Source: Candidatus Omnitrophota bacterium
GTDB lineage: Bacteria > Omnitrophota > Gorgyraeia > Duberdicusellales > 4484-171
Direction: 5' to 3'
DNA length: 64,000 bases
Assembly: GCA_021735655.1 (NCBI GenBank)
Contig: JAIPGM010000001.1
Location: 224,001-288,000 of the forward strand
The notes beneath the pieces are model-generated. The model was not told the DNA's origin. It saw only the letters and a list, made by a program, of their open reading frames with translations, and did no database searches. The position numbers and the translations under genes are program-made. The stretch's first letter is position 1, and each line of letters opens with the position of its first letter. Positions 2 to 15,718 of this stretch are shown one piece after another.

Positions 2-991
2 AAGCTAAACTTAGATAATCTGCATTCCCGGTTAACTTACCCGGCTAACTTAGCAAAAGAGCTGCTTAAGTTTAAGCCGGATAGTCAAATAGAGTCATTC
101 ATTCAGAGAGGTAAGCCTTATATTAGAGGGGCTTTGTCTTATAAATTACGCTACGATAGTTTGTATTGCCAATGGGCTAAATATCTTCTTAAACGTTTTC
201 CTCAGCCTGATTTTTTTGCCCTTTCTTTGCATGAAATACATTCCTTGTCACATCTTTTCTGGGATTGCCTGCCTCTGGCCAAGAAAAGATTTAAGGGCGC
301 GGTTCATCGGCGTCGACAAAAAAAGTATGGCGGGATAATTGAGGATTATTATCGTTACATTGATAAAAATATTGGCGAAGTATTGAAACTGAGCGATAGT
401 GATTCTACGGTTATGATTCTTTCTCACTACGGCATGGTCGATTCACGAATATTTAAGAAGTACATATTTATGGATAAAATTTATCATAAATTAAATTTTT
501 TCTTTTATGATGACGGTATTGATTGGGATCGAACCAGCGTGTATGATAATGTTAATCCTTGGGGTATATACGCTGTACGAAAGGGTTTTATCCGCGGACG
601 CAACCCCCAAAAAATATTTTTATCTTTAAGCAGGAAAATGAAAAAGATAATCACCAATAAAGGTGAGCCTTTGTTTTTGGATATATCATTTGAAAAACAA
701 GATAATTCATTTAAAGTAGTGCCGAATTACAAGGCCATAAACTATTCGACAAAGATATTAATCAAGGGCGAGGAGATACCAGTAAAGGAGTTAGTAGATT
801 TTAAACCGCATTATTCTATACATAATCCTGAAGGGGTTTTCATTGTCTCAAGTCGCAAGAGACAATCTTTAAAGGTTATCAAGGATAAAGTTGATTTTTT
901 GGACATTTTGCCTACGATTTTTTCCTTTTATGGGATAAAAAAAGATCCTAAAATGTCCGGTGAGGTATTTGTAGACAGAAAAAGGAGGTAA
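2..991 (+). CDS. Alkaline phosphatase superfamily protein (type I phosphodiesterase/sulfatase-like), C-terminal part; 5' end lies outside the window
   Basis: The reading frame is open from nt 2 to the stop at 989-991 with no in-frame stop upstream. The ORF track begins at a TTG at 134. The 'VMILSHYGMVD' segment resembles the conserved SDHG metal-site region of the alkaline phosphatase superfamily. Confidence 0.4.
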   Translation, partial: KLNLDNLHSRLTYPANLAKELLKFKPDSQIESFIQRGKPYIRGALSYKLRYDSLYCQWAKYLLKRFPQPDFFALSLHEIHSLSHLFWDCLPLAKKRFKGAVHRRRQKKYGGIIEDYYRYIDKNIGEVLKLSDSDSTVMILSHYGMVDSRIFKKYIFMDKIYHKLNFFFYDDGIDWDRTSVYDNVNPWGIYAVRKGFIRGRNPQKIFLSLSRKMKKIITNKGEPLFLDISFEKQDNSFKVVPNYKAINYSTKILIKGEEIPVKELVDFKPHYSIHNPEGVFIVSSRKRQSLKVIKDKVDFLDILPTIFSFYGIKKDPKMSGEVFVDRKRR

Positions 992-994
992 GTT

Positions 995-1288
995 ATGAAA
1001 GCCGACCAGTTAAAGGGCAAGTGCATGACTATTAACGAAGAAATTATTTCTTGGCGAGAGATCGACAAAGAGGTAGTATTTCTTAATAAACAGGAAAAAA
1101 GTTTTTACGAATTAAACAAAACAGCTGAGATCATTTGGCGCCAGTTAGCCAAAGGCGGTAAACTGACTCAGGTAATTTCTCAGGTTCAAAAGAAATATAA
1201 GAAAGTAGGTAAGCAAGACATAGAAAGAGATGTAATTGCTTTTATTGCAGATGGAATTAAGAAAAAAATATTTATTGTTAATAAATAA
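995..1288 (+). CDS. PqqD-family RiPP recognition element (peptide chaperone)
   Basis: 97 aa. The stretch 'FYELNKTAEIIWRQL...KKY...ERDVIAFI' matches the PqqD signature (LNxT..IW..L...Y...ErDv..F). AGGAGG lies 8 nt upstream of the ATG. The stop overlaps the next start as TAATG. Confidence 0.8.
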   Translation: MKADQLKGKCMTINEEIISWREIDKEVVFLNKQEKSFYELNKTAEIIWRQLAKGGKLTQVISQVQKKYKKVGKQDIERDVIAFIADGIKKKIFIVNK

Positions 1289-2442
1289 TGGCTAAGAAAA
1301 AACATTTTCTTCAAAATCCATTTTTTATTATCCAATGGCATATAACTGAACGCTGTAATTGGCAGTGTAAGCATTGCTATCAGGACAAGGCGCCGGTGCC
1401 TGAACTGCCTTTTGGCAAGCTAGAAGGGGTTCTTGGCCAATGTATGGAACTGTTTAAGACTCTAAACGTTCCCGCTAAGCAAGCTTACATGCATATAGGG
1501 GGAGGAGAGCCTTTCTTGCGGAAGGATTTTTTTAAATTCTTAAAGTTGCTGAGCGTGCATAATGATTATTTAAGAATTCAGATAATGACTAACGGCTCAT
1601 TACTTACGCAGTCGGTAGTTAAAGAATTAAAAAGAATGAAGGTGAACGCAGTGCAGGTTAGCTTAGAAGGATTTGAGCAAACTAATGATCAAATAAGAGG
1701 TCCGGGAAGTTTTAATAAGGCTTTGCGGGCTATAGAGTTGCTGATAAAGAACAAAATTTCCACCAGAGTTTCGCTTACCTTGACCAGGATGAATTTAAAC
1801 GAAATAGATGATTTAGCTGTGTATCTTAAAAGCCTCGGGGTCAGGTCTTTTGGAATCCGCAGATACTTTCCTGAAGGAGAAGGTGGGCAGCTGAAGGAGT
1901 TCATGCTTTCGCCTTTAGAAATGAAAGAGTATTATCTTAGGCGTGAGGCTTTGAAGAAAAAATTAGATGTACCGGGAAAATTTTGGGTTTCTAAAGTTTG
2001 TGAAGATGCATGCTATCTAAGCAGTCAGGATCAGTCTTGTCCAAGCTGCGGTATTACTAGAGGATGTCATCTAAATATTTTTACCAACGGCGACATTCTC
2101 GCCTGTAGGCGTTGTCCGATAGTAGTTGGTAATGTATTAAAGGATAGGTTGCTTGATGTTTACTTTTCTTCCGATACCTTGTGGGCTTTGCGGAATTTAG
2201 ATAATGTCAATCCAGAATGTAGGAAATGCACCTATTTCGATAGATGCCTCGGTGGTGCTAAGTGCGAGTCTTATTCTTATTTTAATAATCCATTTGCTCC
2301 TGATCCCCAATGTTTTAGGTTATTTACCGATCTCCCGGATCCACAGAGATATAATAGGCAGGCAGAGAAAATGGAAGTACAAAAGGTTAGTGCTTTTAAG
2401 GGAGAAAAAAAGTTTACGGATGAGATTGAAGATGTGATATAA
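1288..2442 (+). CDS. Radical SAM/SPASM-domain peptide-modifying enzyme
   Basis: CNWQCKHC is a CX3CX2C motif and a GGGEPFLR glycine-rich motif follows. The C-terminal half carries many extra Cys (CPSCGITRGC...CRRC...CRKCTYFDRCLGGAKC) typical of SPASM auxiliary clusters. It is translationally coupled to the PqqD-like gene. Confidence 0.85.
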   Translation: MAKKKHFLQNPFFIIQWHITERCNWQCKHCYQDKAPVPELPFGKLEGVLGQCMELFKTLNVPAKQAYMHIGGGEPFLRKDFFKFLKLLSVHNDYLRIQIMTNGSLLTQSVVKELKRMKVNAVQVSLEGFEQTNDQIRGPGSFNKALRAIELLIKNKISTRVSLTLTRMNLNEIDDLAVYLKSLGVRSFGIRRYFPEGEGGQLKEFMLSPLEMKEYYLRREALKKKLDVPGKFWVSKVCEDACYLSSQDQSCPSCGITRGCHLNIFTNGDILACRRCPIVVGNVLKDRLLDVYFSSDTLWALRNLDNVNPECRKCTYFDRCLGGAKCESYSYFNNPFAPDPQCFRLFTDLPDPQRYNRQAEKMEVQKVSAFKGEKKFTDEIEDVI

Positions 2443-2479
2443 TTATAGTGATAATATTATAGTAGACAGGAGATTAGCT

Positions 2480-2653
2480 ATGGTTAGCCATTCGAAAAAG
2501 AAAAAAGAGAAAAACCAAGACAAAATTGCCTCTTCAGTTGCTGCGTACGAAAAACCTAAGTTTAAAAAAATTAAACTGCTCGATCCCAAAGAGGCAGGCA
2601 TTGCCGGAACTACGGCTGGCTGCGGCTGCTGCGGTTGTTGCTGTTGTTGGTAA
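2480..2653 (+). CDS. Candidate RiPP precursor peptide (57 aa) with a Lys-rich leader and a Cys-rich C-terminal core
   Basis: Not in the ORF track (below 60 aa). AGGAG sits 8 nt upstream of the ATG at 2480. The translation is MVSHSKKKKEKNQDKIASSVAAYEKPKFKKIKLLDPKEAGIAGTTAGCGCCGCCCCW*. It lies directly downstream of the PqqD plus rSAM/SPASM pair. Confidence 0.6.
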   Translation: MVSHSKKKKEKNQDKIASSVAAYEKPKFKKIKLLDPKEAGIAGTTAGCGCCGCCCCW

Positions 2654-2668
2654 TTTTCTAACTTTTGT

Positions 2669-3559
2669 ATGAGTAAATACTACAATGTAGGTTACCCTCT
2701 TGCAGGAGATTGTCGTGGAGTTATCCAAATACGTACTAAAAGTAAATACCTGTGGGACCTCTTGTGTGGTAAATATGCTATGCTTTTTGGCCGTAAGGCC
2801 TTAAGTGGAAACAATGCTATCCGACGAGATTTTTTCATAGATTTTAATTTTATCTCTGATTATCAAGGTTTAGCCAAAAAAAACAAATCTAAATCTTTAG
2901 ATTTTTCTTGCCAGTTTGATAAAAAGTCAATAATTTATAACTTGGTTACCCCTAGGGGGTCCTCATTGGAAATAAACTATTTTAAGCGTTACGCCCAAGT
3001 GGGCTTGATTGAAAAAGATCCGATGATAACTTACTTTGTTGACAGGATGATTCTTTTTACCTATTCGTTAGCTAGAATGTTTATGGTCCATGGTGCTTGG
3101 GTAAAAAGAGGTAAATCTTCATTTTTTCTCATTGGTCGCAGTGGGGTAGGTAAAACAACCATAAGTTCTTTGTTAACCAATCAAAGTAAAGATTACAAAC
3201 TTATGGATGATGACAGTCCGTTTATTTTTCAGGCTGATGACACTTTGTTTGCTGCCTCCAGAGATCAGCGGCTAGTTGAATATTCACCAAATTATTTGTT
3301 TTTTATATCGAAGAAACCGCGCTTAAAGAGTGAAGCCTGCCCTTTAAGTTCTAAAGAGTCATTTAAGAGGTTAATTGAACACTCAGACGTAATTTTTAGA
3401 AAAAATGACCCGATGACCGATTATCGTTTGGATGTCTTAAGGAAATTGGCAATGCGTTGTAAATCATATCTATTGATTAACGGCAAAGATTTGATTGGTA
3501 GCAAAGTTTTGGCTTCTACTTTATTTAATGGTATTATCAAAAGGAGAAAAAATGCGTAG
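2669..3559 (+). CDS. HPr kinase-related P-loop kinase (HprK C-terminal-domain-like)
   Basis: 'HGAWVKRGKSSFFLIGRSGVGKTT' matches the HprK C-domain pattern hG..v...g.GvLi.G.SGvGKSe, which is a Walker A motif. Confidence 0.55.
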   Translation: MSKYYNVGYPLAGDCRGVIQIRTKSKYLWDLLCGKYAMLFGRKALSGNNAIRRDFFIDFNFISDYQGLAKKNKSKSLDFSCQFDKKSIIYNLVTPRGSSLEINYFKRYAQVGLIEKDPMITYFVDRMILFTYSLARMFMVHGAWVKRGKSSFFLIGRSGVGKTTISSLLTNQSKDYKLMDDDSPFIFQADDTLFAASRDQRLVEYSPNYLFFISKKPRLKSEACPLSSKESFKRLIEHSDVIFRKNDPMTDYRLDVLRKLAMRCKSYLLINGKDLIGSKVLASTLFNGIIKRRKNA

Positions 3560-4277
3560 TAAAATTATGTTTTATTTAGGGTTAGCGGTATTTAGTATGC
3601 TTGTTAATATAACAGTGTTCGGTGCAGATATTTCATATCAGGATTTGGTTCAGAGTGCTAAAGATAATTTTGCTTACCAGGTTTCAAATATAAAAAGTAT
3701 TGAGTATAAAGTAGTGGTTTCTGATATTGATGCTGAAACTATTTTATATATAGATGTTTGGGCGAAGTCCCCGGGGAGAGTTAAGGTGAAGCGTTTGGAT
3801 GTTCGTCCTGAGGCAAGCGATGATGGTGAATTCATTTTTGATAAAGGCAAAAGTTGGTCTAATTCTTCGATGGTTCCGGTAGAGATGTATATGGGGATGG
3901 TCGAGCAAGCTTTGTCTGGTGACCTAAGAGGTGGGGCGGTTCTAGAAGAGGAGAGCGGCCTAAGAGAAGTTTCTGGTACAACATATGCAGTAGCTACTTT
4001 ATTGTTTTTCGGAAAGTGTAAGGTAAAGGCATATTATAAGATACCTGATTCCCGCCGACCGGATAAATACGAAGTATTTTTGCTTCAGGGAGATAATTGG
4101 AACAAGTTAATGGATCTAAAACCACAGGATTACCAGGAGGTTGAAGGATCAGTATTTCCCCGCAGGACTGTCCAAACTCTTTATGAGCCCGAAGGCCAAG
4201 AGGAAAGGGTTATGGAGTTTTACAAAATAAAGGTTAATCAGGAAATAGATGACAGTATTTTTCAGATTCCTCAATAA
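3552..4277 (+). CDS. Exported hypothetical protein (N-terminal signal peptide)
   Basis: AAGGAG lies 5 nt upstream of the ATG at 3552. The N-terminus is MRSKIMFYLGLAVFSMLVNITVFGA. The ORF track gives a longer ORF from 3495. Confidence 0.5.
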   Translation: MRSKIMFYLGLAVFSMLVNITVFGADISYQDLVQSAKDNFAYQVSNIKSIEYKVVVSDIDAETILYIDVWAKSPGRVKVKRLDVRPEASDDGEFIFDKGKSWSNSSMVPVEMYMGMVEQALSGDLRGGAVLEEESGLREVSGTTYAVATLLFFGKCKVKAYYKIPDSRRPDKYEVFLLQGDNWNKLMDLKPQDYQEVEGSVFPRRTVQTLYEPEGQEERVMEFYKIKVNQEIDDSIFQIPQ

Positions 4278-4345
4278 ATTTTCTTAACTGCATAGATAGG
4301 ATTTTGTTTATAGCATTATCCTTTTTTTACGTCTTGCCTTTTAAA

Positions 4346-5149
4346 ATGAAGAAAAACTATACAGTATCATTTATCGAAAGCGACAGTATGTGGCCGGTCT
4401 TGAGGCCTTCAGATAAGGTATTGATTAAGGCAGTATCTTCTGCTTCGTTAAGAGTAGGAGATATTATTGTTTATCGGAAAAAAGAATTTTCGGTTGCCCA
4501 CCGGATTGTCCGAGTAGTTAATAATAAGGGGTTTTCCACTTATTGGACCAGAGGTGACTTTAATTATAAGCTCGATCAGGTTTCTACTGAAAATATAATT
4601 GGTAAAATAGCTGGAGTTTATCGTGATGGCCACCTAAAGCCAGTAAGAGGTCCTGGGTGCTGCTGGCTGTTTTTTATTGTGTTTTTAGGGAAAGAGGCTT
4701 CAACCAGGGTTTTGGAAGGAATATATTCTCTTGGGTTTTTTCGTAGTTGGATTAAAAGATTGTTTCCTTTAAAGGTTTCTTATGTCGTGGTGGGGGACAT
4801 AAAAAGCAATGATGATTTTAAAAGCTTTTATCATCGGTCATTTGATTCTTTATGTGAAGGTGGAACTCAGACAGGAATTATGGCTTTGTTTAAGGGTAAG
4901 CCCATAGGTAAACTTTGGATTTTAATTGACAAAGAAGGCAGCTTTTTTTTCTATGGTCCTTATGTAAGGTTGCTTTACCGTGTGAGGGGAGTTGCTGGAG
5001 GATTGATTAAGCAAGCTGTGTGCTATCTTGAAGGCTCTGGTTTAAAAAGGTCTAAAGTGTATGCTTTTACAGGAGGTAGCCGAATCCTGCTCAACTGCTT
5101 TAGCCGAGAGGAAATAGAAGCTAGAGGAGATTTTCCAGATAAACTTTAG
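4346..5149 (+). CDS. Signal peptidase I (S26)-like domain fused to a C-terminal GNAT-like domain
   Basis: 'SDSMWPVLRPSDKVLIK...GDIIVYRK...AHRIVRV' resembles the S26 SM(x)P...GD...KR(v) blocks. The C-terminal 'LLYRVRGVAGGLIKQAV' fits GNAT motif A (R/Q-x-x-G-x-G/A). The ORF track starts at a TTG at 4304. ATG 4346 is preferred. Confidence 0.5.
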   Translation: MKKNYTVSFIESDSMWPVLRPSDKVLIKAVSSASLRVGDIIVYRKKEFSVAHRIVRVVNNKGFSTYWTRGDFNYKLDQVSTENIIGKIAGVYRDGHLKPVRGPGCCWLFFIVFLGKEASTRVLEGIYSLGFFRSWIKRLFPLKVSYVVVGDIKSNDDFKSFYHRSFDSLCEGGTQTGIMALFKGKPIGKLWILIDKEGSFFFYGPYVRLLYRVRGVAGGLIKQAVCYLEGSGLKRSKVYAFTGGSRILLNCFSREEIEARGDFPDKL

Positions 5150-5160
5150 AAGAATTAAAA

Positions 5161-6594
5161 ATGGAACAATTTGACTGTGTTTTAATCCATCATTCCGGGC
5201 CGGGCCCTAATGCTAAGCATATTGCTCCTAATGTCTCGATGGGTGTATTTGCTTTGGCAGATATTTTGCAGAGAAACGGCTACAGGACTGAAATAATTCA
5301 TTTAGGCATAGAAGAATATCTTGATAATAGTTTTTCTTTGGCCAGATATTTAAGAGTTAAAAAGCCATTATTGGTTGGAGTTACTTTGCATTGGCATTTA
5401 CAATGCTCTAAAACCGTAGGCTTAGTTAGAAGTATAAAAAAAATAGTTCCTGGCGTTAAAGTTATTTTAGGAGGTTATACGGCAAGCTTTTTTGCCGATC
5501 AAATAATGCCTGAAGTTAAGGAAGTTGATTTTATTATTAGAGGTGATGCTGAGAAACCTCTGCTGGAGTTGATGCGACAGTTAAAAGACGGCCATTTTGA
5601 CTTAAGTTCTGTGCCGAATCTTACTTGGCGTAGAGCCAAAAAGGTAATACATAACAAGCAGAGTTATGTAGCAAAAAAGGAGGATCTTGATCAGTTAAAT
5701 TTCTCTAATTTTAAACTTATGAAAAATAGTCAGTTTTATTTAGGTTCATTAGCTAAAATTTACCAGTCAGTGCAGGATACAGAAACATACAATCTTCTTA
5801 AACTGAATCCTTTTTATCTTTCTGTTGGTCGAGGCTGTCGGTTTAATTGTCTGTTTTGCGGTGGATCGGCAATGGCGCAGAAATTAATTAACAACCGAAA
5901 TAATTTAGTTTTTCGTTCTTCCAAAAAAGTCATCTCTACCATTAAAGACGCTTTTCGAGAAGGAGTAGATACTTTTTGTATTTGTTTTGATCCTAATCTT
6001 GACAAATCTTATTATTTTGATTTATTTCAGTCTATCCGCAAAAATAGAATAAAAATTTCAATGATGTTTGATTGTTGGTCTTTGCCATCATTTGAGTTCA
6101 TTGATGCATTTGCTAAGACTTTTCAAGATGGAAAACATAGTAGCTTAGCCTTATCTCCAGAAACCGGTTCTGAGCGCTTACGAAAAAAGTATAAAGGTTC
6201 ATTCCATACTAACCAGGAATACTTTGAGGTATTTCGTTATTTACGGGCAAAAGGCATAAAATGTGTTGTGCAGTTTGGCTATATATTTCCGGGTGAAAGC
6301 ATGGTAGATTTTAAGAAGACTAGTGACTTCATTGAAACCACCAATGAAATTTTTAAAGGACGAGTGCTTGTAATTATAAATAAATGCGTGATTGACCCGG
6401 CTTCTTTGTTTTATATGTTTCCGAAAAAGTATAAAATAACCAGAAAAGCGGTTAGCTTCTCTGATTATTGTAGATTAGATCCCTGGAAGAGCTATTCTTT
6501 TTTTCCCGCCCAGCAAAAGAAAATGAAAGCTGTTTTAAAGATGTGGCAAAAGGTTGAGGCTCTTCAGTTATTGGATATTGCTGATCCGATCTGA
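5161..6594 (+). CDS. B12-binding-domain radical SAM enzyme (class B rSAM)
   Basis: The N-terminal region looks like a cobalamin-binding Rossmann domain (VKVILGGYTAS...DFIIRGDAE). This is followed by 'LSVGRGCRFNCLFCGG', which carries CX3CX2C. Confidence 0.8.
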   Translation: MEQFDCVLIHHSGPGPNAKHIAPNVSMGVFALADILQRNGYRTEIIHLGIEEYLDNSFSLARYLRVKKPLLVGVTLHWHLQCSKTVGLVRSIKKIVPGVKVILGGYTASFFADQIMPEVKEVDFIIRGDAEKPLLELMRQLKDGHFDLSSVPNLTWRRAKKVIHNKQSYVAKKEDLDQLNFSNFKLMKNSQFYLGSLAKIYQSVQDTETYNLLKLNPFYLSVGRGCRFNCLFCGGSAMAQKLINNRNNLVFRSSKKVISTIKDAFREGVDTFCICFDPNLDKSYYFDLFQSIRKNRIKISMMFDCWSLPSFEFIDAFAKTFQDGKHSSLALSPETGSERLRKKYKGSFHTNQEYFEVFRYLRAKGIKCVVQFGYIFPGESMVDFKKTSDFIETTNEIFKGRVLVIINKCVIDPASLFYMFPKKYKITRKAVSFSDYCRLDPWKSYSFFPAQQKKMKAVLKMWQKVEALQLLDIADPI

Positions 6595-6613
6595 CCGCGT
6601 TTTAAAGGCGCTT

Positions 6614-7774
6614 TTAAAAAATCATCTTGAAAATGTGTTTTATAAGTCTATAGGGTATATAGAAAATTCTTAGGTGGTATTTTCTAGCTGTTGTTACACA
6701 ACGTTGGGGCAGAGAATAATACTTAGCAAATTGTTCCTGTGGTACGGTTAAAATGTATTTTAAGGGGTAGCTTATGGTGTCGTAATAGATAAATTGACAG
6801 AGGGTGTAGATATAAGGTAGATTTTCCATTCTTACTGGGGTGTAGGTAAAGCGCTGCACGATAGAAGATATTAAATATTTTTGCCAACCAGGCACTTTAA
6901 GTTTTTTCAGGAAAAATTTAAGGTCGACATCCAAAACGAATTGCATTTGATATAATAGAAGGTAGAGGCTTGCTTTGGCTTTTTCTTGTTCAGCTGCCTT
7001 TAAGATATATTCCCAGTTAAGATTTTCCTCTTTTAGGATAATCCCCAAGTCACAAATGTATTTTAAATTAAGTATTTTTCCGAACCGTCGCTGATGTAAG
7101 GCAAGGCTTAGAATAGTGTCTTCGGCGCTTAAAGCTCTAAAGGAGTATCCTGGGCCTTGGATTAGGCGCAGGCGATTCCATGCATCAGGCAATACTTTTT
7201 GCTTAAAGCGATTGCAATCTAAAGCCCAGTGCAGTTCGACTAGTGTAGCTTGGCCATTAGTTTCTTTAGTGAAAGAGAGGTGACATTGGTGCTTTCGCCA
7301 GTAAGCTTCGTCAGATCCGAGAAATTCCTTTTTATAGCCCATGGCCAGAAGAAGAAAAGTTGCTTTTTCAAAGTTTTTTTCAGTGGTGAACAGGTCTATG
7401 TCTGATGAAGGACGTATCCCAAAATGCTTGTAGTATTTATCAGGCAAAGAAAAGCCCTTAATCGGAATAATTAGGGTATCGGATTTTTCCGCTTCTTTGA
7501 GTATATTTGATAATTCAATACATAGATTTTCATGGTTAAAAATTTTTAAGCAATAAAACTTTTTATAAAGTTGTTCAAAGCCTTTCGGTATCGGGTATGA
7601 ATTTTCTTTAAGTATAACCTGAAGAAAGTGAGGTAGCTCATGGTAAAAAATAGCATAACCTAGGTTTTTTCCGTGTATGTTTTCTGCTTTGAGGCTTTTT
7701 AGGAGTAGATCACGTTGGTTTCCATAGACTATTTCCTTCGCTAGGTATTTGATTATTTTTTCTTCAGTTTTCAT
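6614..7774 (-). CDS. Nucleotidyltransferase-fold protein (NTP_transf_5/PF14907-like)
   Basis: 'GFSLPDKYYKHFGIRPSSDIDLFT' fits the nucleotidyltransferase motif hG[GS]...DhDh. The start was chosen at CAT 7772-7774 (MKTEEKII...) to avoid an 86-nt overlap. The ORF track extends it to 7882. Confidence 0.5.
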   Translation of the reverse strand: MKTEEKIIKYLAKEIVYGNQRDLLLKSLKAENIHGKNLGYAIFYHELPHFLQVILKENSYPIPKGFEQLYKKFYCLKIFNHENLCIELSNILKEAEKSDTLIIPIKGFSLPDKYYKHFGIRPSSDIDLFTTEKNFEKATFLLLAMGYKKEFLGSDEAYWRKHQCHLSFTKETNGQATLVELHWALDCNRFKQKVLPDAWNRLRLIQGPGYSFRALSAEDTILSLALHQRRFGKILNLKYICDLGIILKEENLNWEYILKAAEQEKAKASLYLLLYQMQFVLDVDLKFFLKKLKVPGWQKYLISSIVQRFTYTPVRMENLPYIYTLCQFIYYDTISYPLKYILTVPQEQFAKYYSLPQRCVTTARKYHLRIFYIPYRLIKHIFKMIF

Positions 7775-7796: not shown

Positions 7797-8843
7797 TTAT
7801 AAAAATAAAGGATAAATGGTTTTGCCCGGGCATTCTTCCGGACAGGATTTTCCTTTACGAAAGGTCCGGTATTTTTCTCCATACCATATATCCTTAAAAG
7901 ATAACTTATTTATATTTCCGAGTGATTTTTTTTCGGCATAAACACAACCTAAGACTTCACCTTCTAAAGTTATAACTGATTGAACCCAAGACAGATAGCA
8001 GGGTTTTTGTTTAGTCTGGCTTTGAATTTTCTGAGGTATTTTGTTACCACTGGCAAAATTTAAGAAACTTTTAATATTGTTGGGAATTTTTATCTTACTG
8101 GAAATGCTTGAGATTTTTTCCACGAATTCTTCCTGCTCAGACTCCGGAGGAATAAGTCTTTTATTTAGTTCCGGAGTCATAAGTAGAGGTTTAAACAGCA
8201 GCTTATCTGCCGATAATTTCTGGCTAAGAGCGATCATCTCGGCAGCATTGTGGTAATTAAGATTAGATATTACGTTTACCAGAAACAAGAGAGGGTATCG
8301 TTTTTTGCCTTTTAGGGACTTTATCAGGAAGAGATTGTTTAATAAAGTATTGAAATCTTTTTTGTTTCTGGAGGGCCTGATCCTTTGGAAAGTTTCAGCA
8401 TCCGCGCAATGAAGACTTACCAGAATTTTTTTTACACCCTTTTCTATTAGCTTGGCTATATTAGTTTTATCAAGATAAAAGGCATTGGTCATTAGCTCAA
8501 CATTGATTTTTTGCTCACCGGCTATGCTTATAAGTTTAAACAGATCGGGATGCATTAGTGGTTCACCTTCTCCGGTAAATAAAATAGTGTTTACCTGAAG
8601 GGTTTTTAATTGCTTAACCAGGGCAGAAAATGTATCACAGGAGATATGCTGATCCGGTTTTTTTTTGGATATCGCCCCTGAATGATACCAACACATTTCG
8701 CAAGCCATGTCGCATTTATTGGTTATATCAAGAGTTATCTTAAGCGGTCCGGTAAAAGCTCTGCTTCGGGAAAGTATTCCTAGGAGGCGGAGCATATTGT
8801 GAGAATTTGAAAGATAGTGTAGATTGTTTTTTAACGAAAACAT
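7797..8843 (-). CDS. Radical SAM/SPASM enzyme, family B paralog
   Basis: 'ITLDITNKCDMACEMCWY' carries CX3CX2C and a GEGEPLMH motif follows. The C-terminus has a SPASM-like pattern (KPCYLS...GEVLGCVYAE...GNINKLSFKDIWYG...CPEECPG). An alternative start at 8795 (MLRLLG) matches the paralog N-termini. Confidence 0.8.
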   Translation of the reverse strand: MFSLKNNLHYLSNSHNMLRLLGILSRSRAFTGPLKITLDITNKCDMACEMCWYHSGAISKKKPDQHISCDTFSALVKQLKTLQVNTILFTGEGEPLMHPDLFKLISIAGEQKINVELMTNAFYLDKTNIAKLIEKGVKKILVSLHCADAETFQRIRPSRNKKDFNTLLNNLFLIKSLKGKKRYPLLFLVNVISNLNYHNAAEMIALSQKLSADKLLFKPLLMTPELNKRLIPPESEQEEFVEKISSISSKIKIPNNIKSFLNFASGNKIPQKIQSQTKQKPCYLSWVQSVITLEGEVLGCVYAEKKSLGNINKLSFKDIWYGEKYRTFRKGKSCPEECPGKTIYPLFL

Positions 8844-9059: not shown

Positions 9060-9911
9060 ATGAGCAAACCTTTATTATCGGTGATTATCCCAGCTTTTAA
9101 CGCCGAAATTTACATTGAAAAATGTTTGCAACCATTGATTAAGAATCTGTCTGATGGTTTAGAAGTAATTGTTGTCGATAATGGGTCAGTTGATAAAACA
9201 GCAGCTATTGTAACTGAGGGATACCCTCAGGTAACTTTGTTGAAAAATCAGGAAAATCTCGGTGCTTGTAGGGCTAGGAATCAAGCTATCGAAGTCTCAT
9301 CTGGAGAATGGGTTTTGACTCTTGATTGTGATGTGGTTTTGGAAGATGACTTTATTTTAAAAGTATCTCAGTTGATAGATGATCTGCCGTCTGATCGTAT
9401 TGGAATAATCCAGCCAAAAATATTGCAAGCTGACAAAAAAACTATTGATTCCTGTGGAATCCATCTTTCCTGGTTGAGGAGATTCTATGATCTTGGGAAG
9501 GGGAAAACTGACTCCGGCCAATTCAATGAATCTATCTATGTTTTCGGCGCCTGCTCAGCCTGCGCTCTTTATCGGCGGACGATGCTTGAGGATTTAAAAG
9601 AAAGTGGAGAATACTTTGATCAAAAGTTCTTTTTTTTAGTGGAAGATGTGGACTTGGCCTGGCGAGCAAATAATAGGCAGTGGCAATCATTCTTTTTTCC
9701 TTTTATTTCTTGTTGTCATATCGGAAAAAGTTCAGGTTTTCCTAAGAAATTCCGGCAGTATCTTTGTTTTCGCAATCGCTACTACACAATAGCTAAAAAC
9801 GAGGGGTTGGGTAGGTATGCCGGAAAAATTTTACCTGTGATTATATATGATTTTCCTAGGTTGGTTTATTTGGCTTTAACTAATAAATATTTCTGGACTA
9901 GAAAATTGTGA
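9060..9911 (+). CDS. Glycosyltransferase family 2
   Basis: 'LSVIIPAFNAE...VIVVDNGSVDKT' is the GT2 nucleotide-sugar-binding signature. A DxD-like 'LDCDVV' and a 'GACSACALYRR' block are present. Confidence 0.8.
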   Translation: MSKPLLSVIIPAFNAEIYIEKCLQPLIKNLSDGLEVIVVDNGSVDKTAAIVTEGYPQVTLLKNQENLGACRARNQAIEVSSGEWVLTLDCDVVLEDDFILKVSQLIDDLPSDRIGIIQPKILQADKKTIDSCGIHLSWLRRFYDLGKGKTDSGQFNESIYVFGACSACALYRRTMLEDLKESGEYFDQKFFFLVEDVDLAWRANNRQWQSFFFPFISCCHIGKSSGFPKKFRQYLCFRNRYYTIAKNEGLGRYAGKILPVIIYDFPRLVYLALTNKYFWTRKL

Positions 9912-11407
9912 AAACCGAAAACGGAATTACAAACCGGCGTGATTTTTGGATAAAGATTTCTCTGTTCTTTTTTGCTCTTTTTCTGCTTAGGGTATATGGT
10001 CTTAGCCGGCATGAGTTTTGGTATGATGAAATATACTCGGTTGATTTTGCCCGTTCTCCCTTGCTCAGTTGGAACGCCCCTCTTTATTGGATTATTATTC
10101 ATTTTTGGTCAAAGTTATTTGGTTTGTCTGAATTCAGCCTGCGTTTTCCTTCTGCTATTTTTAGTCTGGCTACTTGCGTAGGGACCTATGTTTTGGGAAA
10201 GATGATATTTAGCCGGAGGATCGGGCTTTTGTCAGCTTTGATCATTGGCTTGTCACCTTTCCACCTCTGGTATGCTCAGGAAGCCAGGAATTACAGCCTG
10301 GTAACTTTTTTGGGAATATTTTCTTCTTATTTATTTTTTCGGGCTCTTAATGAGAGAAAAACAATATTTTGGGTTTACTTTGTAGTAATTTCTTTGCTTG
10401 GCGTGTACACAAACTACTTTTATTTGTTTTTGTTGTTTTTTCAAGGGGTCTATTTTGTTTGCTTCCGGGGGGTCAGATTCAAGCTTAAAGAAATATGGCC
10501 TTTTTTAATAGTTCTTGCCGGATTTATGTTTTATTTTCCGGGATTTATCAGTAAGTTTGCTTTTGTAAAATTAGGTTTTTGGGTGCCTAAGCCAGAGCTT
10601 GGGGCACTACTTATTAGTTTTGAGAATTTTCTTTTGGGTTATAGCGGAAACAGATTTTTTTATCTAGTGGCTAGTTTAATAACTTTAGTTTGTATTGGTG
10701 CGTTATTATATAAAGTAATAAAGGATAAGGCTATTTGCCAGGGGGTATTTTTTTGTTTTTGTTTATCGTTTGCTCCGATATTATTGATATTTTTGTTTTC
10801 CAGTATTTTTTTCTCAATTTATTTAGATCGGGGCCTGATGTTGTTCAGTCCTTATTTTTATATTCTTCTTTCTTTGGGATTGTTTTATTTGGTTCGACGC
10901 TGGAGAATCATTGTTTTTATTTCTCTTGTTTTTTTACAGATAGTTGCTATTTTCGGATTTTATCAGGATCGGATGTATCCGCCGCTTAAGCATCATATCG
11001 GAACTTATCTTAAAAAACCGGTTAAACCGGCCATAACTTTTCTTGAGGACAATGTCCGAGAGGGTGATATTGTTGCTTATACTAATCCTTCGGCCATACG
11101 TTCTATGGAATATTATAGCCAGCGGAGATTAGCTGATTTTTATATGTTTTTTGATCCGAGCTTGTCGGAATCATCTTGGCAAAGGCCTATCCAGGAAACA
11201 GCCACTATAGTTCCATATAATAAAATAAGAGGCTTACCTGCTGAACGTATTTGGGTTATTTTTAATGATTGGGGTAGAACCGGTGGCTTGGATGAACATT
11301 CAAAAATAGTAAAGGATTGGATGGATGAAAATCTTACCTTGAAAACTTCCCGGGAATTTGATGGCTTGTGGGTATTGGAGTATACAAAGAAAGTCATTAG
11401 CCCATAG
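9908..11407 (+). CDS. GT-C membrane glycosyltransferase (ArnT/PMT, GT39/GT83-like)
   Basis: It has about 10 or more transmembrane segments. 'RHEFWYDEIYSVDFA' is the periplasmic DE-loop motif of the PMT_2 family. The GTG start overlaps the upstream stop. Confidence 0.65.
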   Translation: MKTENGITNRRDFWIKISLFFFALFLLRVYGLSRHEFWYDEIYSVDFARSPLLSWNAPLYWIIIHFWSKLFGLSEFSLRFPSAIFSLATCVGTYVLGKMIFSRRIGLLSALIIGLSPFHLWYAQEARNYSLVTFLGIFSSYLFFRALNERKTIFWVYFVVISLLGVYTNYFYLFLLFFQGVYFVCFRGVRFKLKEIWPFLIVLAGFMFYFPGFISKFAFVKLGFWVPKPELGALLISFENFLLGYSGNRFFYLVASLITLVCIGALLYKVIKDKAICQGVFFCFCLSFAPILLIFLFSSIFFSIYLDRGLMLFSPYFYILLSLGLFYLVRRWRIIVFISLVFLQIVAIFGFYQDRMYPPLKHHIGTYLKKPVKPAITFLEDNVREGDIVAYTNPSAIRSMEYYSQRRLADFYMFFDPSLSESSWQRPIQETATIVPYNKIRGLPAERIWVIFNDWGRTGGLDEHSKIVKDWMDENLTLKTSREFDGLWVLEYTKKVISP

Positions 11408-11518
11408 TAGGCCTGTGTTTTGTTGATGATTTAGCTGGGGTTATGATAAAATATGTAGACTAATGAGAATTACTGTATTAAACGAGACTCATTTACAGCA
11501 AAAGCTTAACCGAAAACA

Positions 11519-13081: not shown

Positions 13082-13091
13082 GCAGTAGATT

Positions 13092-14288: not shown

Positions 14289-14307
14289 CTAAAAAAAGGA
14301 GTCACAA

Positions 14308-14544
14308 TTGAAGGACAAAATAAGAAACTTTATCATTAGCAATTTTATGTTTGATGAGGGTAGTTTAGGAGATGATGATTTACTATTTGAGACAGGGATC
14401 ATAGATTCTATGGGATTTATCAAACTGCTCGCTTTCATTGATAAGACATTTAATCTATCTATGGATATGAGTGAAATAAGCATCGATAATTTTAATACTT
14501 TAAACAATATTGTTAAGAGCTTAGAGCGTAAGATTAATAGGTAA
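14308..14544 (+). CDS. Acyl/peptidyl carrier protein (DltC-like)
   Basis: 78 aa. 'GIIDSMGFIKLLAFI' is the DSx phosphopantetheine-attachment motif. Confidence 0.7.
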   Translation: MKDKIRNFIISNFMFDEGSLGDDDLLFETGIIDSMGFIKLLAFIDKTFNLSMDMSEISIDNFNTLNNIVKSLERKINR

Positions 14545-14571
14545 TTATTTTATAAAAAGGAGATTCGGAAT

Positions 14572-15717: not shown

Positions 15718-15718
15718 T

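Follow-up and report, generated by a model that had tools for sequence, protein, structure and literature searches.

A conserved family of candidate RiPP precursors, one with a cysteine-rich tail, beside PqqD and radical SAM/SPASM genes in Omnitrophota

Introduction

The uncultured bacteria of the phylum Omnitrophota, most of them anaerobic and many of them ultra-small, have a chemistry that is, to our knowledge, essentially unknown. In the 64,000-nucleotide stretch of an Omnitrophota contig analysed here (the window), a small open reading frame that ends in a run of cysteines lies between the gene of a radical SAM/SPASM enzyme (rSAM1) and that of a P-loop protein (Table 1). The locus raises two questions: whether this ORF encodes a peptide that is modified by the products of its neighbours, and, if so, by what chemistry. 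A preliminary description proposed a RiPP precursor following a PqqD and rSAM/SPASM pair. The ORF was found to belong to an undescribed, conserved peptide family, present mostly in the uncultured phylum Omnitrophota, and it is quite probably a genuine PqqD-dependent, radical SAM-modified RiPP precursor. The arrangement that suggested such a precursor is itself conserved across loci.

Table 1. Coordinates of the features at the peptide locus, numbered from the first letter of the window.
Feature	Coordinates	Strand	Remarks
Type I phosphodiesterase/alkaline-phosphatase-family gene	2..991	+	PF01663; cut by the window's left edge
Discrete PqqD-family protein, putative leader-binding chaperone (RRE)	995..1288	+	Pfam PqqD, 43.4 bits (cut-off 23.4)
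rSAM1, radical SAM/SPASM, putative core-modifying maturase	1288..2442	+	Pfam Radical_SAM
Shine-Dalgarno AGGAG	2468..2472	+	Read from the sequence; 7-nt spacer to the ATG
Candidate precursor peptide gene	2480..2653	+	57 aa plus stop; ATG at 2480, TAA at 2651-2653
Putative leader, residues 1-39	2480..2596	+	Basic, Lys-rich, net charge +7
Leader motif Y23-E-K-P26-K-F28 (YEKPKF)	2546..2563	+	Proposed PqqD/RRE docking site
Putative core GIAGTTAGCGCCGCCCCW, residues 40-57	2597..2650	+	Thr44/Thr45 are candidate phosphorylation sites
Cys/Gly tail GCGCCGCCCCW	2618..2650	+	7 Cys, 3 Gly, Trp
HPr-kinase-like P-loop protein (GRSGVGKTT)	2669..3559	+	HprK_rel_A, Hpr_kinase_C, weak
Secreted LolA-like protein; system membership uncertain	3552..4277	+	Pfam LolA_like, weak (E 0.0016)
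SipW/archaeal-type signal-peptidase-I domain fused to GNAT-like domain	4346..5149	+	TIGR02228 sigpep_I_arch, 67.6 bits (cut-off 51.85)
B12-binding radical SAM, probable methyltransferase, probably accessory	5161..6594	+	Pfam B12-binding and Radical_SAM
NTP_transf_5 nucleotidyltransferase	6614..7774	-	PF14907, 105 bits
rSAM2, second radical SAM/SPASM enzyme	7797..8843	-	Pfam Radical_SAM and SPASM

The Reading Frame and Its Signals

Translation of the ORF gives MVSHSKKKKEKNQDKIASSVAAYEKPKFKKIKLLDPKEAGIAGTTAGCGCCGCCCCW. Most of what had been read from the letters of this gap stands, including the flanking rSAM stop and next gene start, the composition of the last 11 residues, the basic, Lys-rich leader, and the opposite strand, which reads as a Thr/Ala run (KLPTTATTAAAAAS). 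Two details required correction. The AGGAG ribosome-binding site is present, but its spacer is one nucleotide shorter than the 8 nt first given, and the ORF, described as unannotated, is listed by NCBI as an identical [quoted passage not shown] on a 341-kb contig (MAG). An ortholog is uncalled in one NCBI genome (L005), yet called in the matching ENA record (L004). L001, a relative with 94% identity, retains the Shine-Dalgarno sequence as AGGAGG, while the intergenic bases around it diverge. An in-frame TGA is absent from the ORF, and the peptide therefore contains no selenocysteine.

A six-frame scan of the 64 kb for 12-residue stretches with at least four Cys showed that this ORF reaches seven, and that the maximum elsewhere is four. 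The DNA of the Cys/Gly tail has a G+C content of about 64%, compared with 35% window-wide, and contains a terminator-like hairpin at 2617-2637. An RNA element or terminator was considered and rejected, since the hairpin arises as a by-product of repeated GCTGC/GCGGC codons, and Rfam found no RNA family within the window. ARAGORN found no tRNA within the window.

Conservation of the Peptide Family

Searches of genome contigs with rSAM1 yielded no loci when a single sequence was used and 80 loci with a 30-sequence alignment; a metagenome scan with the kinase alignment gave one usable back-translated pattern and 6 loci. In approximately 29 of the 87 fetched loci, a small ORF of the leader family lies no farther than about 2.5 kb from an rSAM1 homolog (34-60% identity), and exhaustive and profile protein searches added further family members. 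The preliminary description had made its case depend on conservation in syntenic loci, and this is what the comparison revealed. Because its position and design are conserved across many related loci, the ORF goes beyond what chance would leave open. Even in loci with a different gene order or strand (L007, L010, and L011), no more than about 2.5 kb separates the peptide from rSAM1 and the kinase.

Comparison of the window gene with that of its closest relative, L001, revealed four synonymous and three nonsynonymous changes. The latter are confined to leader residues 2, 12, and 17, and the three differences within the Cys/Gly core are all synonymous (GGC>GGT, GGC>GGT, and TGC>TGT). Across the family, homologs have the leader in common, while their core DNA is unrelated. 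Y23 and P26 are the sole invariant columns among 23 diverse members, and the cores are hypervariable in length, sequence, and Cys number (1-8), and rich in Cys, Gly, Ser, and Ala. Of 19 peptides that were compared, 18 have 22-31 residues between the Tyr and the first core Cys, and nearly all of the kinase-linked ones place a Ser or Thr no more than five residues ahead of the first Cys. G, S, A, C, or T precedes 93% of the 85 core Cys residues in the family, and the ranthionine acceptors usual elsewhere (D, N, E, Q, K, and R) are nearly absent from the cores.

The poly-Cys run, first taken as the hallmark of the peptide, was found to be one elaboration of this family: relatives whose rSAMs are 56-60% identical carry, for example, the cores IGAAGVSSCY, with a single Cys, and ...SGCGCSCW. 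The C-termini in the closest clade are CW (four times), CY (twice), CF (twice), and SW, and those across cassette-bearing loci also include GE, CS, HC, CA, GS, CV, and VA. The window peptide was scanned against NCBIfam and Pfam (E <= 1 / E <= 10 scans) and fell in no curated family; no precursor model was found for 22 relatives in NCBIfam/Pfam scans. Matches of family peptides to thiazolylpeptide and heterocycloanthracin models (both E ~0.01) and to EGF-like models were weak, of a low-complexity or compositional kind, and were rejected.

The PqqD Protein and the Leader Motif

The stop codon of the discrete PqqD gene overlaps the start of rSAM1. The best NCBIfam matches of its product are lasso-type PqqD chaperones (43.5 bits, cut-off 70). 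In lasso leaders, YxxPxL is the motif bound by PqqD-type B1 proteins, and its Tyr occupies position -17 (PMC10368454). By analogy with these leaders, the boundary between leader and core was placed, provisionally, after residue 39, and YEKPKF is the putative counterpart of the lasso motif.

A YxxP-bearing peptide and a discrete PqqD were found together in 26 loci, the peptide alone in one, PqqD alone in three, and neither in 57. The resulting Fisher p value (9e-18) applies to related loci that are not independent, so the association is partly phylogenetic. Each of the four discordant loci either runs into a contig end or contains a peptide call that is truncated.

The Radical SAM/SPASM Enzyme rSAM1

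In rSAM1, the radical SAM motif CNWQCKHC spans residues 23-30 (C23-x3-C27-x2-C30). Since it begins at residue 23, the enzyme has no fused N-terminal recognition domain (RRE). The SPASM cysteines (C238, C254-x13-G268-x4-C273, C311-x2-C314-x5-C320-x5-C326, and C342) are invariant or nearly so among 30 homologs, and together with the CX3CX2C motif they follow the expected signature (CX9-15GX4C ... CX2CX5CX3C ... C), except that the last spacing is x5 and not x3. Pfam SPASM is recorded in most rSAM1 homologs, and the window enzyme does not reach E 0.1. The top NCBIfam model was the ACGX-system rSAM, TIGR04340 (168.9 bits over the full length, cut-off 400). The SbtM model, TIGR04082, scored 133.8 bits (E 8e-39, model positions 190-496 only, cut-off 350), GeoRSP 130.3 bits, MftC 120.4 bits (cut-off 265), and PqqE 67.9 bits (cut-off 381). 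The thioether synthases StsB (72.7 bits, cut-off 625) and PapB (67.2 bits, cut-off 340) scored lower than SbtM, MftC, or AhbD, and the sporulation-killing-factor and SCIFF maturase models were absent among the 25 matches listed. When the rSAM1 family profile was compared with the PDB, SkfB (6efn, 89 bits) and CteB (5wgg, 73 bits) came first, and anSME, PqqE, and SuiB were also matched. Among SPASM enzymes, a similarity ranking is a poor predictor of chemistry.

The single likeliest guess for the product of rSAM1, which we hold tentatively, is an SbtM-like oxidation of units of a small residue and Cys to sulfur-bearing heterocycles (5-thiooxazoles). Of the biochemically characterised enzymes, SbtM, of the Geobacter thio(seleno)oxazole RiPP, comes nearest by HMM score, and this rank (133.8 bits, versus 67-73 for PapB and StsB) is one reason for leaning to heterocycle chemistry. 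The residues preceding the core Cys, together with the near-absence of ranthionine acceptors, are another, and a third is that the sole curated models the cores weakly resemble are those of azole-type precursors. SbtM acts on a Gly-Cys motif, in which Cys or Sec is oxidised to a thiooxazole (PMC9204691). The window core has three such motifs (AGC, CGC, and CGC), and those of relatives have up to five. The two systems are not identical: the N-terminal part of SbtM, of about 190 residues, has no counterpart in rSAM1, the peptide gene has no selenocysteine codon, and a discrete PqqD, a kinase, and a nucleotidyltransferase are present.

Thioether cross-links are possible too, if rather doubtful. 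rSAM1 would then form bonds between Cys sulfur and an alpha, beta, or gamma carbon of Gly, Ala, Thr, Ile, or Trp, and the product would be knotted, like the sactipeptides and ranthipeptides. As in SCIFF/CteB, PapB, SkfB, and StsB, the locus combines a Cys-rich core, an rSAM/SPASM enzyme, and a leader presumably read through a PqqD-like fold, and a Cys-rich core beside an rSAM/SPASM enzyme is the classical architecture of this chemistry. The full SPASM Cys signature and the top rank of SkfB and CteB among solved structures are consistent with it, and the eight non-Cys residues GIAGTTAG, ahead of the seven Cys, are possible acceptors. However, the putative RRE here has a gene of its own and is not fused to the N-terminus of the enzyme, as it is in the AlbA/SkfB/CteB type, the StsB and PapB scores are far below their cut-offs and under those of SbtM, MftC, and AhbD, and no SCIFF or other precursor model was matched; the sactipeptide/ranthipeptide (SCIFF-like) label of the preliminary description thus finds no backing in family membership. 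The scarcity of typical ranthionine acceptors in the family cores also argues against thioethers, as does a close relative with a lone Cys two residues from its end. Other Cys chemistry, or chemistry at the C-terminal aromatic residue, takes the rest of the probability.

The Conserved Cassette and Its Surroundings

By sequence comparison, the conserved cassette comprises PqqD, rSAM1, the peptide, the HPr-kinase-like protein, NTP_transf_5, rSAM2, and the signal-peptidase/GNAT fusion. The genes other than that of the peptide recur together where rSAM1 identity is at least about 44%. Because the scores of PqqD (NCBIfam), rSAM1, rSAM2, the kinase, and the B12-binding radical SAM protein are far below every named-family cut-off, enzyme functions can be transferred at the superfamily level only.

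The window kinase matches HprK_rel_A (E 0.004, 16 bits, cut-off 200) and Pfam Hpr_kinase_C (E 0.013) weakly. Among 11 homologs, HprK_rel_A was matched by eight (best 2e-14), ScmC by five (best 3.4e-5), HPr(Ser) kinase by three (6e-8), and Pfam Hpr_kinase_C by six (5e-8). The family profile aligns with the HPrK/P structure 1knx over about 94 residues (E 1.6e-5). A single-sequence AF2 model of the window kinase had a pLDDT of 32 and was unusable. NTP_transf_5 is conserved at 30-49% identity in the cassette loci, and its start is likely 7774, not 7882, because homology begins at Met37. rSAM2 is likewise conserved; its best NCBIfam model is a tungsten-cofactor oxidoreductase maturase (124 bits, cut-off 380), and in L007 the homologs of the nucleotidyltransferase and rSAM2 form one fused protein.

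The signal-peptidase/GNAT fusion, a candidate leader peptidase and N-acetyltransferase, was found in most cassette loci. Its homologs keep the G-x-S-M-x-P, x-H-R-[VI], and G-D boxes and an R-x-R-G-[IV]-[GA] motif, and because they begin at the protease domain, the ATG at 4346 is a likelier start than the TTG at 4304. The preliminary description had drawn attention to the co-occurrence of a kinase, a nucleotidyltransferase, and a B12-binding radical SAM protein, and the first two do belong to the conserved cassette. The third has counterparts in other loci at 20-30% identity only and, being weakly conserved, is probably accessory; its resemblance to TIGR04190 reaches 191.8 bits (cut-off 500). 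Homologs of the LolA-like protein (25% identity) were found only in L002 and L008. This gene probably starts at the ATG at 3552, from which a signal-peptide-like N-terminus is obtained; the listed TTG at 3495 is likely too far upstream.

Upstream, the phosphodiesterase frame is open from base 2 and aligns with approximately residues 170-490 of homologs of 465-497 aa, so the reading of a truncated gene at 134-991 was rejected in favour of one that runs off the left edge of the window. Its homologs recur in the cassettes of L003, L004, and L006. A large island of the GT2 glycosyltransferase/PMT_2/MBOAT/Wzy_C type surrounds the cassette, both in the window and in related loci, and because of this setting the kinase, nucleotidyltransferase, and phosphodiesterase could serve envelope glycan synthesis instead of the peptide. 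In L001, the peptide-kinase pair is preceded not by PqqD and rSAM1 but by a phage-type primase gene; PHROG profiles identify the product as a DNA primase, and a tblastn search of phage genomes gave no match. This arrangement may reflect a mobile-element insertion or a chimeric contig of 1.5 kb.

Relation to Known Systems

The uncharacterised SynChlorMet (SCM) system (ScmC-ScmF, TIGR04248-TIGR04251) has the same four types of protein: a P-loop protein related to HPrK, a protein related to PqqD, and two rSAM/SPASM enzymes. The window proteins, or in the case of ScmC the kinase homologs, match its models weakly, at scores far below the cut-offs (ScmD, 21.6 bits, E 1.9e-4, cut-off 100; ScmE, 105, cut-off 400; ScmF, 84.9, cut-off 400), and the window cassette adds an identified precursor family, NTP_transf_5, and the signal-peptidase/GNAT fusion. 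It is thus of SCM architecture, but is not an SCM member. The ACGX system, also uncharacterised, supplies the top model for rSAM1, yet at a score well under its cut-off. Its peptides, which we take to be ACGX-repeat peptides, have some likeness to the family cores, in which Cys is flanked by Gly, Ala, or Ser, and literal ACGS and ACGE endings were found in L009, L012, and L006. If the NCBIfam release contains an ACGX-repeat peptide model, it gave no match to 23 family peptides at E <= 10, in a search whose HMMER filters drop weak low-complexity matches. The literature searched contained no mention of the SCM cassette and nothing relevant on the ACGX system or the core string CHGCR, and for RiPPs and radical SAM enzymes of Omnitrophota it gave only general BGC surveys.

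The lasso tailoring module of a PqqD RRE (B1), an HPr-kinase homolog (K), and a nucleotidyltransferase (N), known from paeninodin, pseudomycoidin, and Bradymonas bsf, resembles the window in its YxxPx[L/F] leader and in joining an HPrK-like kinase and an "uncharacterised nucleotidyltransferase" in one cluster. The kinase of Bradymonas bsf, whose activity is stimulated by the RRE, adds a phosphate to a Ser close to the beginning of the core (PMC10368454; PMC8498205). The window peptide itself was rejected as a lasso peptide, because neither the Asn-synthetase-like cyclase (C) nor the transglutaminase-like protease (B2) was found by Pfam among ORFs of at least 90-120 aa in 1-35 kb. Asn_synthase was matched there only by a PP-loop segment, 56 residues long, in a LarE-like protein (18745-19620). 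Its core also lacks the Asp or Glu at positions 7-9 needed for the macrolactam, and radical SAM enzymes take the place of the lasso machinery. No YcaO cyclodehydratase of the LAP/TOMM type was found by Pfam in 1-35 kb of the window; a YcaO/ThiF fusion adjoins a family peptide in L007.

Proposed Maturation Pathway and Alternatives

In the pathway that we propose, PqqD would bind the leader motif YEKPKF and present the core, about GIAGTTAGCGCCGCCCCW, to rSAM1, which has no recognition domain of its own. rSAM1 would then carry out oxygen-independent radical chemistry on the Cys residues, forming thiooxazole-like heterocycles or thioethers. The HPr-kinase-like protein may phosphorylate the conserved Ser or Thr ahead of the first Cys, here presumably Thr44 or Thr45, and NTP_transf_5 may add a nucleotide or sugar to that phosphate, in the manner of the K and N enzymes of some lasso clusters. 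Finally, the SipW-type peptidase/GNAT fusion would cut off the leader and may acetylate the new N-terminus. A kinase and a nucleotidyltransferase acting on a precursor peptide, with an RRE stimulating the kinase, have precedent (PMC8498205; PMC10368454). A more specific and altogether less likely version of this pathway is that an anaerobic rSAM route turns the Gly-Cys and Cys-Cys runs of a short peptide into a dense array of thiol-bearing 5-thiooxazoles, and that the peptide is then phosphorylated and nucleotidylated or glycosylated, as a counterpart of copper-binding metallophores of the captophorin or methanobactin type. Such a route would also couple a lasso-type RRE, kinase, and nucleotidyltransferase module to SPASM enzymes and would employ a SipW-type signal peptidase to remove the leader. 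The 5-thiooxazole captophorins do bind copper (bioRxiv 10.1101/2025.11.18.689057), but are made by O2-dependent MNIO enzymes, not by radical SAM enzymes. That the window peptide is metal-binding or heavily modified is possible.

It was also considered whether a small molecule or cofactor might be built on the peptide as a sacrificial scaffold, in the way of mycofactocin (MftA/B/C) and PQQ (PqqA/D/E). In both of these systems, an RRE-less SPASM enzyme works together with a discrete chaperone of the PqqD family at the C-terminal end of a short peptide. A C-terminal Cys-aromatic dipeptide would then be cross-linked or decarboxylated by the rSAM enzyme, cut off by the peptidase, and phosphorylated, nucleotidylated, or glycosylated. 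The window reproduces the MftB/MftC and PqqD/PqqE layout, the MftC model gives 120 bits, the peptides of the closest clade end in Cys or Ser plus an aromatic residue, and a peptidase, a glycosyltransferase, and phosphate-handling enzymes lie nearby. However, that MftC score is far under the cut-off, and the reacting residues of cofactor precursors are near-invariant, whereas the core here is hypervariable, with one to eight Cys and with C-termini that differ across the cassette loci. Because of this variation in C-termini and Cys counts, we regard a scaffold as improbable.

Equally improbable is that the peptide is made but is no substrate of its neighbours, either because it is an unmodified, thiol-rich metal or redox buffer, or because the kinase, nucleotidyltransferase, and rSAM2 act on envelope glycans or lipids and are only loosely linked to it. 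The glycosyltransferase island around the cassette, in the window and in related loci, would suit such a role, as would the L001 pair, which has no rSAM gene immediately upstream. A leader-core design with an invariant YxxP, the tight co-occurrence with PqqD, and the persistence of the peptide near rSAM1 and the kinase when gene order or strand changes are hard to explain in this way. Lastly, that the frame is spurious, a G+C-rich repeat or RNA element open by accident, could be argued from its shortness and its low-complexity, hairpin-capable TGY/GGY repeat DNA, but it is extremely improbable in view of the Shine-Dalgarno site, the operon-like spacing, the synonymous core substitutions, the leader common to homologs with unrelated core DNA, and the empty Rfam scan, and the conservation data effectively refute it.

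Significance

A RiPP precursor matured with the help of PqqD and radical SAM enzymes is thus the preferred reading of this locus. The analysis defines a precursor family that can be recognised by its leader (Y-x-[KR]-P-x-hydrophobic-K-K), a conserved cassette of seven genes, and natural core variants with one to eight Cys, and together these offer an unusually clean start for heterologous reconstitution. The cassette unites parts of different RiPP classes, namely a lasso-type module of PqqD, HPrK-like kinase, and nucleotidyltransferase and two SPASM enzymes, and adds the signal-peptidase/GNAT fusion as a candidate leader peptidase. The leader profile also brings together, as one superfamily, approximately 70 or more unnamed ...CRQCS[GS]CHGCR peptides, some of which come from loci of Bacteroidales and Syntrophorhabdus. 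We know of no radical SAM example of thiooxazole formation other than SbtM. If rSAM1 forms thiooxazoles, this chemistry would be extended to a wide family and would point to anaerobic metallophores; if it forms thioethers, the family would constitute a new ranthipeptide-like class that depends on a discrete RRE.

A cysteine-rich peptide gene in the cassette

The 226-nt gap between the stop of rSAM1, the radical SAM/SPASM enzyme (2442), and the start of the HPr-kinase-like P-loop gene (2669) was found to be filled by the candidate precursor ORF, which starts 37 nt past the rSAM1 stop, with the P-loop gene starting 15 nt past the stop of the ORF. Direct reading of the sequence confirmed the ATG, the AGGAG motif, the frame, and the product given in the preliminary description. 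In a six-frame scan of the whole 64 kb for stretches with at least four Cys, this ORF reached 7 Cys per 12 residues, compared with a maximum of 4 elsewhere. Counted on the sequence, the 33-nt tail of the ORF is approximately 64% G+C, compared with 35% for the window. All genes between the window's left edge and 6594 share one direction and are tightly packed, with the PqqD stop overlapping the rSAM1 start. The peptide had been described as unannotated, which did not hold, because NCBI already lists an identical protein, [quoted passage not shown], on a contig of 341 kb; the entry is unnamed and unclassified.

A terminator-like hairpin, with a 9-bp stem followed by a T-rich stretch, lies inside the Cys-tail coding sequence. 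It probably just results from the repeated GCTGC/GCGGC codons, but could reduce read-through into the P-loop (kinase) gene. Searches for Rfam families and tRNAs found none anywhere in the window.

Features of the cassette, its neighbourhood, and related loci
Feature	Locus	Position	Strand	Remark
PqqD	window	995-1288		above Pfam cut-off; best NCBIfam models, lasso-peptide PqqD chaperones, below cut-offs
rSAM1	window	1288-2442		radical SAM/SPASM
Shine-Dalgarno AGGAG	window	2468-2472	+	7-nt spacer to ATG 2480
Peptide ORF	window	2480-2653	+	ATG 2480, TAA 2651-2653; product MVSHSKKKKEKNQDKIASSVAAYEKPKFKKIKLLDPKEAGIAGTTAGCGCCGCCCCW
Hairpin	window	2617-2637		inside Cys-tail coding sequence
P-loop protein	window	2669-3559		HPr-kinase-like
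SPase-GNAT	window	4346-5149		above curated cut-off of archaeal/SipW-type signal peptidase I model
NTase	window	6614-7774	-	NTP_transf_5
rSAM2	window	7797-8843	-	second radical SAM/SPASM
Genes downstream of cassette	window	9060-17302		GT2, two PMT_2 (ArnT/PMT-like), MBOAT, acyl-CoA dehydrogenase, AMP-dependent ligase
LarE-like PP-loop protein	window	18745-19620		
LarB-like protein	window	19610-20356		AIR-carboxylase family
LarC	window	20353-21534		Ni_insertion, 478 bits
DUF362 protein	window	21546-22760		
Third PMT_2	window	23673-25244		
Adjacent 644-aa ORFs	window	25260-27194; 27194-29128		
Three radical SAM genes	window	30098-33616		
Small gene	L002			...EAYEKPRLKKIKWLDFRKDIGAAGVSSCY
Small gene	L003			...AEYEKPKKQQVKWTKDDSKVGVAMLSGCGCSCW
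Small gene	L004/L005			...ELYKKPQMKKVYSAEHDRQQTFELVASSGGGGCSCY
Small gene	L006			...EHYERPEMKRVYSVEHKRHETFNAVAASGTCGGGELCGCACGE
Small gene	L007		opposite	still directly 5' of P-loop gene; ...EEYEAPSFKKVF...GSCASCGSACSSGGCSCGCGGACACSSSW
LDTPEATNYLAAIFVGTALAGC-branch member	L027	6012-6176		
LDTPEATNYLAAIFVGTALAGC-branch member	L029	3387-3551		
LDTPEATNYLAAIFVGTALAGC-branch member	L042	5987-6151		
LDTPEATNYLAAIFVGTALAGC-branch members	P0131, P0133, P0134 and others			

Conservation of the peptide family

Relatives of rSAM1 number in the hundreds at 40-60% identity, and are mostly labelled Omnitrophota. The contigs of several carry a small gene (44-64 codons) that adjoins the rSAM, immediately precedes the gene for a P-loop protein of 290-340 aa, or both; the small ORF is kept beside rSAM1 homologs in syntenic loci of related genomes, as the preliminary description had anticipated for a genuine precursor. 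An exhaustive phmmer search of the window peptide against 1.8 billion representatives added two members, ending in ...AGCSAPGCCCW and ...SGCGCCGCGCGCW, and a profile search of 5.8 billion proteins returned 90 matches, all "hypothetical protein" or unnamed. Scanning one genome per species with an alignment of 30 rSAM sequences provided 80 loci, and a leader HMM detected the peptide in about 29 of all 87 loci. The sole invariant alignment columns are Tyr23 and Pro26 (the YxxP motif of the leader), and the cores are wholly different in sequence, with a Cys count of 1 to 8.

The closest relative, L001, is 94% identical in DNA and differs at seven positions within the ORF. Three differences are nonsynonymous, all in the leader (residues 2, 12, and 17), and four are synonymous, three of them in the Cys/Gly tail, a pattern that would be expected of a translated, constrained core. 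The L002 peptide, whose rSAM is 60% identical to rSAM1, has the core IGAAGVSSCY and shows that one Cys near the C-terminus would suffice; the poly-Cys run would thus multiply the modifiable units, rather than being a requirement.

Homology of L001 to the window begins exactly at the rSAM1 stop codon (L001 1-1311, from window 2438). Upstream, PqqD-rSAM is replaced by a phage-type DNA primase (PHROG phrog_47, E 4e-13), for which tblastn against phage genomes found no match, and an 80-aa ORF; a mobile-element insertion could account for the junction, as could chimerism of the 1.5-kb contig.

Two further branches were observed. The most abundant branch of the leader family (approximately 70 cluster representatives, P0129-P0213; loci L048, L050, L054, L057, L058, and L067) has the near-invariant core end ...[AV]CRQCS[GS]CHGCR after a leader ...YEKPxhKKxEKMxFMFEPYK..., and was found in Bacteroidales, Syntrophorhabdus, and other loci; all its members are unnamed, and no NCBIfam or Pfam model matched it. 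In an Omnitrophota branch, the core ...LDTPEATNYLAAIFVGTALAGC[ST]PAKS is not Cys-rich and is highly conserved, unlike the hypervariable cores in the branch of the window peptide; a lipobox-like L-A-G-C lies five residues before its C-terminus. P0125 (...SGCGCCGCGCGCW), the nearest poly-Gly-Cys relative, is followed by a HemN-like (class C) radical SAM with the motifs HLPFCKYSCKFC and GGGTPTYL, rather than by the kinase (L094 338-1228, on a contig of only 1.2 kb).

Enzymes of the cassette

BLAST of the window proteins against the ORFs of all loci revealed that PqqD, rSAM1, the peptide, the P-loop protein, NTP_transf_5, rSAM2, and an SPase-GNAT-like fusion recur wherever rSAM1 is at least approximately 44% identical, often with an added type I phosphodiesterase. 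The members keep together despite differences in gene order and strand: the peptide comes before the rSAM in L010/L011 and is on the opposite strand in L007. In L007 (features at 5358-7646 and 11067-13433), one fused 760-aa protein comprises the NTase and rSAM2, which argues for joint work of both. A YcaO/ThiF fusion gene of L007 lies directly beside the family peptide with the core GSCASCGSACSSGGCSCGCGGACACSSSW.

The CX3CX2C motif of rSAM1 is located at residues 23-30, too close to the N-terminus for a fused recognition domain to precede it, and the full SPASM signature is conserved in 30 homologs. Its NCBIfam scores, every one far under its cut-off, were 169 bits for the ACGX-system rSAM, 134 for SbtM, 130 for GeoRSP, 120 for MftC, 105 for ScmE, 73 for StsB, and 67 for PapB; the family profile matched the solved structures of SkfB, CteB, anSME, PqqE, and SuiB. 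The P-loop protein is by itself weakly HPrK-like. Its homologs matched "HprK-related kinase A" (8/11, best 2e-14), ScmC (5/11), HPr(Ser) kinase (3/11), and Pfam Hpr_kinase_C (6/11, 5e-8), and approximately 94 residues of the family profile were aligned to the HPrK/P structure 1knx. In the signal-peptidase/GNAT fusion, the Ser, His, and GD boxes are retained, and the C-terminal domain has a GNAT-like R-x-R-G-[IV]-[GA] motif.

Proposed leader recognition and core boundary

All 87 loci were searched with a PqqD profile derived from those that carry the cassette. Both a YxxP peptide and a discrete PqqD were present in 26 and both were absent from 57, while 1 had the peptide alone and 3 had PqqD alone; the Fisher p-value of 9e-18 overstates the association, because loci that are related do not count as independent observations. 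Each of the four discordant loci either has its cluster cut by a contig end or carries a shortened peptide call. The association extends across rSAM identities of 34-60% and five different core types.

With Tyr23 set at -17, the position of Tyr in the YxxPxL motif of lasso leaders, the window core would be GIAGTTAGCGCCGCCCCW. The distance from Tyr to the first core Cys is 22-31 residues in 18 of 19 compared peptides, the exception being L036, with a Cys inside the leader. Nearly all kinase-linked members have a Ser or Thr within five residues before the first core Cys. In the Bradymonas bsf lasso cluster, which also encodes a nucleotidyltransferase, the PqqD-type protein B1 strongly stimulates the HPrK-like kinase BsfK, whose target is a Ser near the core start (PMC10368454). 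Elsewhere among lasso clusters, it is the C-terminal Ser of the precursor that the kinase phosphorylates, and the phosphate receives a hexose from the NTase (PMC8498205).

Relation to known systems

The four protein types of the uncharacterised SynChlorMet system of Haft (ScmC, ScmD, ScmE, and ScmF) all have counterparts in the cassette, which is closest in enzyme sequence to the uncharacterised ACGX system and falls under all curated cut-offs in both comparisons. It shares its RRE/kinase/NTase logic with lasso peptides, and its discrete-PqqD layout with mycofactocin and PQQ. A lasso system was rejected, as Pfam scans of window 1-35 kb found no Asn-synthetase-like cyclase and no B2 protease. 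The precursor-model search that had been proposed earlier found no NCBIfam or Pfam model matching the family peptides. Given the lack of a curated match and the borrowed lasso, mycofactocin, and PQQ layouts, we rate the cassette as an rSAM/SPASM-modified, PqqD-dependent, Cys-rich RiPP type that is not categorically new. No paper describing it was found in the searchable, non-subscription literature.

Predicted chemistry

The enzyme and its putative substrates point to radical chemistry at Cys. Heterocycle formation of the SbtM type is slightly favoured over thioethers, because of the SbtM score, the Gly-Cys units, and the core composition. SPASM enzyme similarity is a poor predictor of chemistry, so these three points are not proof; thiooxazole-like chemistry is a tentative assignment and only slightly more probable than thioether formation, each being less likely than not, and the remaining probability falls to other chemistry. 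By score, SbtM is the nearest characterised enzyme, and thioether-synthase models reach approximately half that value. The dominant unit is Gly-Cys, with three copies in the window peptide and five in P0125, and an archaeal locus with a related rSAM carries ...CGCGCGCGCGCGCH. In 22 family members with 85 core Cys in total, the residue before the Cys is G, S, A, C, or T in 93% of cases. The same five residues make up 69% of the cores, a composition typical of azole-type RiPPs and the reason for weak matches to thiazolylpeptide and heterocycloanthracin models, while Asp, Asn, Glu, and Lys, the acceptors in ranthipeptides, are almost absent. SbtM converts the Cys/Sec of a Gly-Cys motif to a thio(seleno)oxazole (PMC9204691), and 5-thiooxazole peptides bind copper (bioRxiv 10.1101/2025.11.18.689057).

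A 75-aa ORF ending in ...GSCSCGGCGSCGCSSCGCGCGCGCGCGCH was observed in a Methanosarcinales MAG (L045 5482-5709), with an rSAM homolog of 38% identity 1.2 kb downstream. The ORF has no YxxP leader and the locus no PqqD, and it may represent a separate, archaeal type of poly(Gly-Cys) precursor. L072 (CPR) and L069 resemble it: in L072, ...SGKCTCCGGCN comes immediately after the rSAM, and L069 has ...CRHCSSCGGCSSCGSDFK.

Genomic neighbourhood and gene calling

The cassette is located inside a large envelope-glycan island with GT2, three PMT_2, MBOAT, acyl-CoA ligase, and GDSL genes, and some neighbours may therefore belong to another pathway. GT4, Wzy_C, and PMT_2 also recur around the cassette in other loci. 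One possibility is that the peptide is linked to envelope glycan assembly.

Three other regions of the window were recorded. Between 18745 and 22760, a nickel-pincer cofactor biosynthesis-like trio of consecutive genes is followed by DUF362; no LarA-type user enzyme was identified. The two adjacent 644-aa ORFs have no Pfam match at E <= 0.001; tandem paralogy within an unknown family is possible. A second group of radical SAM genes, three in a row and one of them carrying a B12-binding domain, lies between a GT2 and a GDSL-lipase gene, and the leader HMM found no family peptide nearby.

At L005 6559-6714 (GCA_001304135.1, Omnitrophica WOR_2 SM23_72), the precursor ortholog is uncalled in the NCBI record, but ENA's version of this sequence (L004) includes the call. 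Genes of the peptide family are easily overlooked by gene callers.
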